The position numbers and the translations under genes are program-made. Below are positions 35,684-36,575 of a DNA stretch of 38,680 nt, one piece after another (positions within the stretch are counted from its first letter, which is position 1; each line of letters starts with the position of its first letter). Origin of the DNA: an uncultured Candidatus Peribacteria bacterium (GTDB lineage Bacteria > Patescibacteriota > Gracilibacteria > UBA1369); NCBI GenBank assembly GCA_964435355.1, contig CAYSYL010000002.1, forward strand, positions 1 through 38,680, in the 5' to 3' direction. The notes under the pieces are model-generated. The model was not told the origin of the DNA. It was given only the letters and a program-made list of their open reading frames with translations, and ran no database searches.

Positions 35684-35789
35684 TAAAAAACTGCACTAAC
35701 ATAACCTTTGGAGATTTGTGAAGTTTTACGGTTTGGAAGGTTTTGAAACTGGAGCTACAGATTTTTCGACCTATTTTATTTTTGTGTTT
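35684..35789 (+). repeat. Intergenic element copy D (full ~105-nt form; core 35749-35789)
   Basis: Shares with copy E the blocks TAACCTTTG (35702-35710), GGTTTGGAAGGTTTTGAA (35730-35747), the CTGGAGCTACAG core and TATTTTATTTTTGT (35772-35785). Confidence 0.75.
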
Positions 35790-35821
35790 ACGCTTTCACG
35801 ATAAATCTGAAAAAACCGATC

Positions 35822-35850
35822 TTTACAGGAACGTATATACTTTGTATAAT
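35822..35850 (+). promoter_or_regulatory. Sigma70-type promoter of mazEF (TTTACA-17-TATAAT) with internal palindrome GTATATAC
   Basis: TTTACA at 35822-35827, 17-nt spacer, TATAAT at 35845-35850, 25 nt upstream of the mazE ATG. Palindrome at 35833-35840. The 13-mer TATACTTTGTATA (35836-35848) is identical to 1933-1945 in the fic promoter. Confidence 0.55.
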
Positions 35851-35875
35851 AAAAATGTTTTATAATTAAAACTCT

Positions 35876-36109
35876 ATGAAAACCCAAGTCAAACAATGGG
35901 GAAATAGTATCGCTGTAAGAATTCCGAAACTTTTTGCCGAAGAAATAGGCATTATAAATGGTTCAGCTATTGAAATAAAAATTATTGATAAAAAAATCAT
36001 TGTATCAAAGCCAAAATCTAGACTGAACGAATTGCTTGAAGAAGTTACTTCTAAAAACATTCACTTCGAAACAGATACTGGATTACTTAAAGGAAAAGAA
36101 ATATGGTAA
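35876..36109 (+). CDS. mazE: MazE/AbrB-type antitoxin (SpoVT-AbrB fold)
   Basis: KQWGNSIAVRIPKLFAEEIGIINGSAIEIKIIDKKIIV is the classic MazE/ChpS N-terminal swapped-hairpin motif. It overlaps the toxin gene by 7 nt. Confidence 0.85.
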   Translation: MKTQVKQWGNSIAVRIPKLFAEEIGIINGSAIEIKIIDKKIIVSKPKSRLNELLEEVTSKNIHFETDTGLLKGKEIW

Positions 36110-36444
36110 AAAATTATATTCCGGAGCGAGGTGATATTGTTTTGCTTGATTTCAATCCCCAATCTGGCAAAGAACAAGCTGGAAAACGTCCTGCCGTTGT
36201 TATTTCTCCAAAAATATATAACGAAAAAGTTGGACTCGCGATTTTCTGCCCTATTACGAGCAAAATCAAAAATTATCCTTTTGAAATTGTTTTACCGAAA
36301 CATATGAAAACAAAAGGAGTTATCCTGGCTGATCATGTAAAAAATCTTGATTGGTATATTCGAAAAAGCCACTTTATCGAAAAATTACCGGATAAGTGTC
36401 TCCAGGAAGTTTTGGATAAGTTAGGGTTACTTTTATTTGAATAG
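36103..36444 (+). CDS. mazF: MazF/PemK family endoribonuclease toxin
   Basis: YIPERGDIVLLDFNPQSGKEQAGKRPAVVISP...FCPITSKIKNYPFEIVL...VILADHVKNLDW matches the PemK/MazF pattern. Confidence 0.9.
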   Translation: MVKNYIPERGDIVLLDFNPQSGKEQAGKRPAVVISPKIYNEKVGLAIFCPITSKIKNYPFEIVLPKHMKTKGVILADHVKNLDWYIRKSHFIEKLPDKCLQEVLDKLGLLLFE

Positions 36445-36465
36445 AGCCTCTCCTTTTTGCATTAT

Positions 36466-36575
36466 TAAAAATCGCTCTAACAATAACCTTTGAGGGTTTG
36501 TAGGGTTTTATGGTTTGGAAGGTTTTGAATTCTGGAAGCACAAACTTTTCTACTTATTTTATTTTTGTAATTTGG
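36466..36575 (+). repeat. Intergenic element copy E (full ~105-nt form; core 36532-36569)
   Basis: TAACCTTTG (36484-36492), GGTTTGGAAGGTTTTGAA (36512-36529), CTGGAAGCACAAACTTTTCTAC, TATTTTATTTTTGT (36555-36568). Same orientation as D. Confidence 0.75.

Follow-up and report, generated by a model that had tools for sequence, protein, structure and literature searches.

Tandem tRNA-associated repeats around a mazEF module in a Peribacteria genome as probable junctions of small integrative cassettes

Genes and repeats at the mazEF locus

The stretch of DNA analysed here (the window) is an entire contig, C2, of 38,680 bp from an uncultured Candidatus Peribacteria bacterium. The assembly of this genome (G000) comprises 1.42 Mb in 154 contigs and has a GC content of 40%. 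The upstream part of the contig carries housekeeping genes (SmpB, AsnRS, Maf and DNA alkylation repair) with a GC content of 40-44%, whereas the region from 30293 to 38679 has a GC content of 30-37% and contains a mazEF toxin-antitoxin module together with six strong copies of a repeated element. These copies, named A to F, all lie on the same strand between 31.7 and 38.2 kb (Table 1). The mazE and mazF genes overlap by 7 nt, and their adjacency as antitoxin and toxin genes identifies a type II MazEF system. The module is bracketed by copies D and E, and its promoter, located downstream of D, is the best site in the region scanned.

The cores of the six copies start at positions 31688, 32530, 33894, 35749, 36532 and 38124, with E-values of 1e-12 to 1e-16. 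E-values for the junctions and for the possible remnant Z are taken from R2, a profile model of the element. The first profile was a sequence-only covariance model made from the six window copies, and it was later rebuilt with the matches from related genomes. Across the rest of the 1.42-Mb assembly there are no copies beyond these six. A copy proposed at 28635 is not significant in the R2 profile search, and the seventh, partial copy (Z) is marginal. A search of Rfam with the region from 28.0 to 38.7 kb yields nothing at E<=1.

Between the copies lie modules of one to three genes in either orientation, and the resulting cassettes are 0.8-2.2 kb in size. Besides mazEF, the cargo includes several open reading frames (ORFs) and a family 2 glycosyltransferase (GT2) gene. 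In the cassette after B (32629-33743), a single gene of about 370 amino acids appears to have been broken in two by a frameshift in a run of eight A residues (A8, about 32884-32891), and the downstream frame is open back to this run. The cassette after A (31998-32421) likewise contains two overlapping short ORFs. Exact-protein look-ups of MazE, MazF, DUF6624 and DUF4304 return no record. The same look-up for GT2 returns one 1.2-kb Logan contig from run SRR11567520, which is identical to the window, ends inside the right-hand arm of F and is uninformative.

Table 1. Features of the array region and the attachment site of a relative. P' arm denotes the conserved right-hand part of the element; R2 is the profile model of the element.
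Feature	Position	Strand	Evidence
Z: possible degenerate P' arm remnant (TTTTGTGTTTTGG...)	30280..30303	+	R2 E=0.067, model positions 41-64 only; uncertain
Junction A: degenerate tRNA-end core CTGAAGATCC, then P' arm	31682..31763	+	R2 E=4.7e-12
Junction B: core CTGGAAGCAC, then P' arm type 2 (ACAAAC...)	32522..32598	+	R2 E=4.5e-15
Junction C: core CTGGAGCTAC, then P' arm type 1 (ACAGAT...)	33886..33969	+	R2 E=7e-14
Left arm of D, with CTAAC (35696) and G/T-rich 9-10-nt units	35684..35748	+	Alignment with E; periodicity p about 0.03
D core CTGGAGCTAC (tRNA-Thr 3' end, opposite strand), then P' arm	35749..35824	+	R2 E=1.2e-16
mazEF promoter, sigma-70-type TTTACA-17-TATAAT	35822..35850	+	11/12 consensus positions
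mazE antitoxin, 77 aa	35876..36109	+	Pfam MazE_antitoxin E 1.2e-9
mazF toxin, 113 aa	36103..36444	+	Pfam PemK_toxin E 1e-26
Left arm of E, with CTAAC (36477) and 9-nt unit x4.3	36466..36531	+	Tandem Repeats Finder; alignment with D
E core CTGGAAGCAC, then P' arm	36532..36593	+	R2 E=2.6e-15
Junction F: left arm of 8-nt and 24-nt core-repeating units (CTCTGGAAG...), core TGGAGCCACAG, P' arm	38060..38202	+	R2 E=1.6e-16; Tandem Repeats Finder
Cargo, in order: 441-aa HExxH protein (-), two frameshifted genes, 140-aa ORF (-), DUF4304 (-), 96-aa ORF (-), mazEF (+), DUF6624 (-), GT2 (-), lipoprotein-like ORF running off the contig end	30293..38679		
G135-type attP (P arm, TGGAG, P' arm): AAAATAAGTTGAAAACATTGTATGGAGCCACAATGTTTTCAACTTATTTT			

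Similarity among the six copies

An initial annotation of this DNA had described D and E as direct repeats flanking mazEF. A pairwise local alignment of D (35684-35785) with E (36466-36568) bears this out, extending over about 103 nt with approximately 80% identity. The three exact blocks listed in that annotation are all found in both copies: TAACCTTTG at 35702 and 36484, GGTTTGGAAGGTTTTGAA at 35730 and 36512, and TATTTTATTTTTGT at 35772 and 36555. The first two are unique to D and E within the window, and the shared blocks include one of 18 nt and one of 14 nt. In the 5' extension (the 70 nt that precede the core), D and E are indeed the most similar pair, with 55/70 matches compared with 33-43 for other pairs. 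Their 41-nt cores match at only 32/41 positions, which is below both B-E (37/41) and C-D (36/41). The copies are therefore mosaic, and the description of D and E as near-identical was too strong.

The same comparison bears on the proposal that D and E arose by a recent duplication. At about 80% identity and with mosaic similarity, they are neither the products of a fresh duplication nor a target-site duplication. A local duplication of one intergenic segment around mazEF, proceeding without site-specific recombination, would be compatible with the 18-nt and 14-nt exact blocks and with the common 5' extension. However, the cores of D and E are each nearer to other copies than to one another, and homologous elements lie beside tRNA genes in other families of the order. 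With these observations added to the modest identity, we consider such an origin extremely improbable.

The 9-10-nt G/T-rich tandem units noted previously are present in D and E, where autocorrelation peaks at 9-10 nt (p about 0.02-0.03, corrected for the periods tried) and where Tandem Repeats Finder reports a 9-nt unit repeated 4.3 times in E (36489-36525). In F the autocorrelation peak is at 8 nt (p<0.001), and the program reports an 8-nt unit repeated 4.1 times as well as a 24-nt unit repeated 1.9 times. The latter contains CTCTGGAAG, such that the left arm of F is partly a tandem re-copy of the core, which suggests stacked or slipped att remnants. Autocorrelation reveals no periodic G/T-rich units in A, B or C. 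Because the units are absent from these copies and from the relatives described below, the element is not defined by them. They are located on the preceding cassette's side of each junction, and in D and E they could serve as protein-binding sites.

A CTAAC box had been likened to the core sequence of integron recombination sites. The box is located 49-55 nt upstream of the core in C, D and E (at 33845, 35696 and 36477), which is more frequent than the chance expectation of about 0.035 per 90 nt, and F has GTAAC in its place. As the following comparisons show, the box is not the recombination core.

Homologues beside tRNA genes in related genomes

Related genomes were represented by 151 genomes of the same order. 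Scans with an exact pattern of 22 invariant bases found the element in 0/40 relatives and gave one chance match in GTDB species genomes and four in metagenomes, one of which is inside an NADH-dehydrogenase-like ORF. The pattern was too strict, and a profile search then succeeded, detecting homologues in 21 of the 151 genomes, distributed over nine families (E<=1e-5). Same-strand arrays occur in G094 (six copies), G138 (three copies) and G135, G142, G026 and G092 (two copies each), and the consensus of the relatives is AAAAATGGAGCCACAATGTTTTCAACTTATTTTATGTTTGTGTTCGGGTTTTGTCGCAGGGGGAAGCAG. A synteny check of seven relatives revealed no comparable array beside the DNA-alkylation-repair gene.

These homologues have a consistent genomic context. 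At all 13 loci where the contig reaches far enough for an assessment, the last element is followed by an opposite-strand gene for tRNA-Thr or tRNA-Val. tRNA-Thr is found at nine loci (the TGT gene at eight, and at L036 a CGT gene with the TGT gene adjacent) and tRNA-Val at the other four. The distance from the last element to the tRNA gene is 0.5-2 kb at 12 loci and 11 kb in G135. When read on the element's strand, the tRNA gene opens with the element core TGGAGCCAC, which identifies the 5' core of the element as a copy of the tRNA 3' end. The cores of the relatives match their own tRNA-Thr at 9/9 positions. The actual core is thus TGGAG(CCAC) rather than CTAAC.

The genes between the elements vary by genome, as at a locus in family f6 that lies between murB and murA. 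The idea that toxin-antitoxin modules are recurrent cargo of such arrays holds well, with ParE-type, Phd/YoeB and HigBA systems all found between elements in relatives, as is a GNAT acetyltransferase. The ParE-type pair directly follows an element in three genera. In G113 this pair has CTTAAATGGAGCCAC on each side. In G138 only the distal portion of the P' arm is present on the left, and a P-arm-like inverted repeat is present on the right.

Two loci have unusual arrangements. In G113 (L035; contig C8, reverse strand), a stretch of about 55 nt (AAACAACCGCTATTTTGAAAGC...TTCTTAAATGGAGCCAC) occurs twice, at oriented positions 9050-9124 to the left of the ParE cassette and at 9940-9998 directly before tRNA-Thr, with a third partial site (TGGAGCCACCTAT) between them. 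This locus has undergone more than one event. In G023, which belongs to the family of the window genome, oriented positions 6345-8227 of contig C111 (L039) contain the element, a gene for a 561-aa cysteine-rich protein and tRNA-Cys in place of tRNA-Thr. The end of this tRNA-Cys has only CAATGGAG in common with the element, a match that fits the crossover position deduced below and suggests that the CCA-end core occasionally permits integration at other tRNAs.

Recombinase genes and attachment-site architecture

No integrase or other recombinase domain is encoded in the window. In two relatives, a site-specific recombinase gene is located beside the attachment (att) site. An 11.3-kb island in G135 begins with the element at oriented position 8221, and its last gene encodes a large serine recombinase (LSR) of 563 aa that has Resolvase, Recombinase and Zn_ribbon_recom domains. 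Its nearest solved structures are the TP901-1 and A118 serine integrases, and its ORF overlaps tRNA-Thr(TGT) in antisense by 70 nt. The 20 nt preceding the core (AAAATAAGTTGAAAACATTG) form an exact inverted repeat of the element arm (CAATGTTTTCAACTTATTTT), matching at 20/20 positions in register. The result is a site of about 50 bp with dyad symmetry about TGG/AG, where the slash marks the crossover, and this is the architecture of an LSR attP.

In G134, a homologous LSR with 44% identity reads into tRNA-Val(GAC), and the inverted arms match at 18/21 positions. At a distance of about 12-14 kb upstream of this gene are four same-strand junction copies with spacings of only 0.5-1.2 kb. Their arm repeats the LSR-side arm in inverted form. 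Within this locus (L041; G134:C1:102000-121500), the copies are at 1591, 2099, 2585 and 3834 and the LSR gene is at 15875-17539.

These findings also bear on the reading of the array as an integron-like platform with attC-type sites, an integron integrase and mazEF as a stabilising cassette. Cassette-sized modules between same-strand repeats, a toxin-antitoxin cassette and the RYYYAAC-like GCCTAAC of copy C all recall integrons. However, the single-stranded DNA folds of C, D and E are no better than those of shuffled sequences on either strand (z-scores -0.7 to +1.7), and no consensus secondary structure emerges when 15 relatives are aligned and folded. Elements that do not fold in this manner are not attC sites. 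In addition, the window lacks an integrase, the cassettes occur in both orientations with one to three genes and their own promoters, and the origin of the elements lies in a tRNA 3' end and an LSR attP. An integron origin is accordingly given almost no weight here.

Promoter functions were considered for the element as well. The tRNA genes of this organism have classical -35/-10 promoters that the elements do not resemble, and half of the cassettes face the other way, so the element was rejected as a promoter. Resemblance to sigma-54, extracytoplasmic function sigma factor or Bacteroidetes-type motifs was rejected by eye.

tRNA-Thr loci of the window genome

The assembly that contains the window has three tRNA-Thr loci, one of which carries the remains of a recombinase gene. 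Positions 179-589 of contig C26 correspond to the C-terminal third of a homologous LSR (53% identity, E 6e-34). The contig starts inside this gene, which is decayed, with in-frame stops and an internal deletion that removes the Zn-ribbon region. The remnant reads antisense into tRNA-Thr(GGT) at C26 c[523-598]. In register, the reverse complement of the C26 P arm matches the window arms of C at 15/24 and of D at 14/24 positions (TACAGATGTTCCGAC against TACAGATTTTTCGAC). The core of F, TGGAGCCACAG, is identical to the end of this tRNA-Thr(GGT) (11/11), and the cores of C and D match TGGAGCCAC at 8/9 positions.

The complementary arm makes tRNA-Thr(GGT), together with its decayed LSR, the likely partner of the array. 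The array would then continue through an unassembled stretch into C26. No overlap or similarity was found between the flanks of C2 and C26. The G/T-rich left arms of D, E and F were also compared with the 3' end of the C26 recombinase gene, and their derivation from it was rejected on the grounds that there is no significant similarity (p>0.2). Among the comparisons of tRNA-Thr flanks with window arms, that of C80 with A gave one score of doubtful meaning.

At C80:4426-4760, a tRNA-Tyr-like sequence (anticodon GTA) lies about 100 nt after tRNA-Thr(TGT). Its 3' acceptor strand is unpaired, ARAGORN makes no call, and it may be a tRNA truncated by another integration.

A model of tandem integration

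The six elements are, in all likelihood, attL-type junctions of small integrative cassettes arranged in tandem at a tRNA-Thr 3' end, with an LSR as the most probable recombinase. Each element, read from left to right on the plus strand, would begin with the variable right end of the left-hand cassette, which in D, E and F would be the G/T-rich extension. This would be followed by 9-11 nt copied from the 3' end of the opposite-strand tRNA-Thr (TGGAGCCAC followed by A or G) and then by the conserved P' half of attP, approximately 45 nt long and contributed by the right-hand cassette. Autonomous elements would carry a phage-type LSR gene at their tRNA-proximal end, reading antisense into the tRNA, and an attP of about 50 bp with 20-bp inverted arms around the crossover. 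Each new integration beside the tRNA would push older cassettes outward. Cassettes that lack an LSR gene would be moved in trans, or would formerly have been.

Applied to the locus, D would be the junction with the cassette before mazEF and E the junction with the cassette after it. The preceding three-gene cassette would end on its right with the left arm of D, and the mazEF cassette with that of E. The D core and P' arm would form the left end of the mazEF cassette, with crossover at 35752/35753. The E core and P' arm would likewise form the left end of the next cassette (DUF6624 and GT2, minus strand), with crossover at 36535/36536. On this model, the mazEF module is one LSR-less cassette of 783 bp (35753-36535) with its own promoter. 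Thus, the earlier views that the repeats are related to recombination and that mazEF was inserted as a discrete cassette within a cassette array both stand, although the type of site is different.

Several features of the array are expected from tandem junctions. The model accounts for elements on the same strand whatever the direction of the genes, variable left arms, mosaic similarity and a tight right boundary, with minus-strand stop codons located 5-15 nt past the arm. The low GC content of the array also speaks for it. On the left, the likeness of D to E would stem from the similar right ends of the two adjoining cassettes. On the right, D goes with C and E with B, as a consequence of two types of P' arm. 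In 5/5 of the window copies that are informative, the GCC/AGC variant of the core goes with arm type, placing the crossover at TGGA or to its left.

Other observations weigh against this interpretation. In D, E and F, the left arm does not form an inverted repeat with the P' arm, and the internal junctions are therefore not intact attP sites. Repeated integration is consequently not readily accounted for by canonical LSR rules and has to assume either a relaxed choice of substrates by the LSR, as in Ccr-type enzymes, or decay of the P arm after each event. The cores of B and E (TGGAAGCAC) and of A (TGAAGATCC) have diverged from the tRNA end. The contig ends at 38680, 0.5 kb past F, with no tRNA or recombinase gene physically linked to the array, and no left arm of D, E or F has a counterpart in the left flanks of the assembly's three tRNA-Thr loci.

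The identity of the recombinase is a further point. The G135 island also encodes a 289-aa tyrosine recombinase, with a 44%-identical homologue in the window genome at C42:9997-10923, and a tyrosine enzyme could be a further route to repeated integration. The same tRNA-associated array might even have been built entirely by a XerC/D-like tyrosine integrase. Such enzymes are usual at tRNA 3' ends, and tandem arrays form easily when attL and attR both keep the core. However, the G135 tyrosine recombinase gene is mid-island, 5 kb from both ends, whereas the LSR gene abuts and overlaps the att site in G135, in G134 and, in decayed form, on C26. The 20-bp inverted arms in a site of about 50 bp also lack the typical overlap of 6-8 bp flanked by core sites of 9-13 bp. 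A tyrosine recombinase is thus an unlikely builder of the array.

Coding potential of the P' arm

The LSR frame continues through the P' arm, where it reads GATMFSTYFMFVFGFCRRGK in the tRNA-Thr type, GNRYVSTYFCFFWAFRRGK in the tRNA-Val type and, in the window, GATDFSTYFIFVF..R ahead of a stop. This frame is open in 23/23 copies, whereas the other two frames contain stops. Between the Thr-type and Val-type arms there are five synonymous codon changes in the LSR frame, compared with one and zero in the others. The bias of codon-position entropy is weak and not decisive as a coding test. These features suggest that, in the excised form, the P' arm may also encode the C-terminal tail of the LSR, which would then differ from the tail of the integrated form.

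One reading of the coding signal is that the element is a small gene or regulatory module, in which a GGAG ribosome-binding site and an ATG precede a conserved hydrophobic peptide (MFSTYFMFVFGFCRRGK) located before the cassettes. In relatives, GGAG lies 5 nt before an in-frame ATG, and both the open frame and the synonymous changes noted above would suit a gene. However, the ATG is replaced by GAT, AAC, GAC or AAT in 6/6 window copies, a stop lies directly before the frame in B, and the entropy bias is weak. Furthermore, the GGAG belongs to the copy of the tRNA CCA end. Because the small-gene frame is the LSR frame continued across the crossover, the LSR tail explains the coding signal, and an independent small gene is very unlikely.

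A more speculative proposal follows from an LSR ORF that crosses its own attP. Integration might detach the hydrophobic tail (..G[AS]T.FSTYF.FVF..RRGK), which would stay behind at the far junction as an orphan 'tail exon', with residues encoded antisense to the tRNA replacing it. Such an exchange might act as a switch between the excised and integrated states. The same enzymes might move LSR-less mini-cassettes of 0.5-2 kb, often carrying toxin-antitoxin modules, in trans. Together, these processes would create an integron-like platform at tRNA-Thr or tRNA-Val genes that operates without attC hairpins or IntI. This proposal is tentative and, on present evidence, somewhat doubtful, and given the weak entropy bias the tail swap is put forward only as a hypothesis.

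Other repeats and islands in the genome

Two further loci in this genome are mentioned for completeness. At C42:4534-10923, an island surrounds tRNA-Tyr (7941-8026) and contains genes for an LSR of 608 aa and a lipoprotein, as well as a split gene for the tyrosine recombinase that is 44% identical to the G135 enzyme. Within the window, separate direct repeats of about 160 nt (1734-1890 and 3488-3646) bracket a Fic gene and a 102-aa ORF. These repeats are approximately 70% alike, have the common blocks ATTTAGAAAGCTG and TTTGCAAA, and are unrelated in sequence to the A-F element. Near them, two tRNA-Pro genes, at 6327-6403 (-) and 8976-9052 (+), form an inverted repeat with 83% identity.

Comparison with known systems

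Chromosomal integrons and the Bacteroidales rAID-1 arrays offer a first comparison. In rAID-1 arrays, immunity genes are lined up behind a conserved gene for an XerD-family recombinase (10.1101/471110). Short accessory cassettes, skewed GC content, a repeated intergenic site and toxin-antitoxin cassettes are common to these systems and the present array. Unlike them, the array has no attC hairpin and no IntI or XerD-like gene at its head, its cassettes have mixed orientations and their own promoters, and its site is derived from a tRNA end. No recombinase gene is adjacent, and the cargo is mixed (toxin-antitoxin, GT2, DUF4304 and DUF6624).

The tycheposons of Prochlorococcus arise from successive integrations at tRNA genes, with partial tRNA copies between elements (Hackl et al., 10.1101/2020.12.28.424599). 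They mostly carry tyrosine recombinases and replication modules, and a minority have LSRs (10.1101/2020.12.28.424599). Degenerate remnants, cargo modules and tRNA-copy separators are features of both tycheposon islands and the array described here, although the present cassettes mostly hold one to three accessory genes and no mobility gene.

Cis-mobilizable elements (CIMEs), which are linked to integrative and conjugative or integrative and mobilizable elements through accretion and mobilization, have been described mainly in Firmicutes and use tyrosine integrases. As in CIMEs, integrase-less segments flanked by att sites are found in tandem with an integrase-bearing element. Unlike CIMEs, no conjugation or mobilization genes are seen here. 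In staphylococci, composite islands of staphylococcal cassette chromosome (SCC) and psi-SCC elements form at rlmH (orfX) and are moved by the LSRs CcrAB and CcrC, which have a relaxed choice of substrates. Shared with SCC are LSR-driven integration at a conserved gene's 3' end, tandem arrays with short direct repeats, and members that lack a recombinase gene but are flanked by the same sites, and by analogy a Ccr-type relaxed substrate choice would explain repeated integration. The SCC target is instead protein-coding and belongs to another lineage, and the LSRs in the present system are nearest to TP901-1 and A118 among solved structures.

If it is correct, the tandem-junction model replaces the earlier picture of an integron-like site with iterons by a concrete and testable one. 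It provides a 50-bp attP, an attB and candidate enzymes for a serine integrase family in a lineage without genetics, and serine integrases are useful for genome engineering. The data also show that these genomes of 1-1.5 Mb acquire accessory genes, toxin-antitoxin modules among them, in the form of small cassettes at a single tRNA locus. Should the tail swap and trans-mobilization prove true, they would amount to integron-like gene capture based on a different recombinase. The features of most interest are the cassette-sized LSR-less modules, the order-wide conservation of the element and the possible tail swap.

Among described systems, the nearest is the family of Dehalococcoides genomic islands at ssrA (ssrA-GIs), which are tandem islands downstream of the transfer-messenger RNA (tmRNA) gene bounded by direct repeats of its 3' end (McMurdie et al. 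2011, PMC3146451). About 85 bp around each repeat are additionally conserved, a serine recombinase of about 540 aa is encoded beside the att site, and some islands without an integration module have been read as cis-mobilizable elements (PMC3146451). The present system differs in its target, which is tRNA-Thr (tRNA-Val in a sister group), in its shorter repeat of 9-11 nt, in its cassettes of 0.8-2.2 kb and in an LSR ORF that crosses the crossover, and neither a second small recombinase nor a six-gene integration module is seen. It resembles the ssrA-GIs in its target-end repeats, conserved flank, adjacent serine recombinase and recombinase-less members. The repeats that separate its modules contain a copy of the target RNA 3' end (in F, C and D and in the relatives), and its attP of about 50 bp has dyad symmetry about the central crossover dinucleotide (in G135, in G134 and in the C26 P arm compared with window arm C). 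Arrays of this kind, to which SCC composite islands and tycheposon islands also belong, are already known as tandem tRNA or tmRNA islands, and the array reported here is a further member of that class from a little-studied lineage of small genomes.

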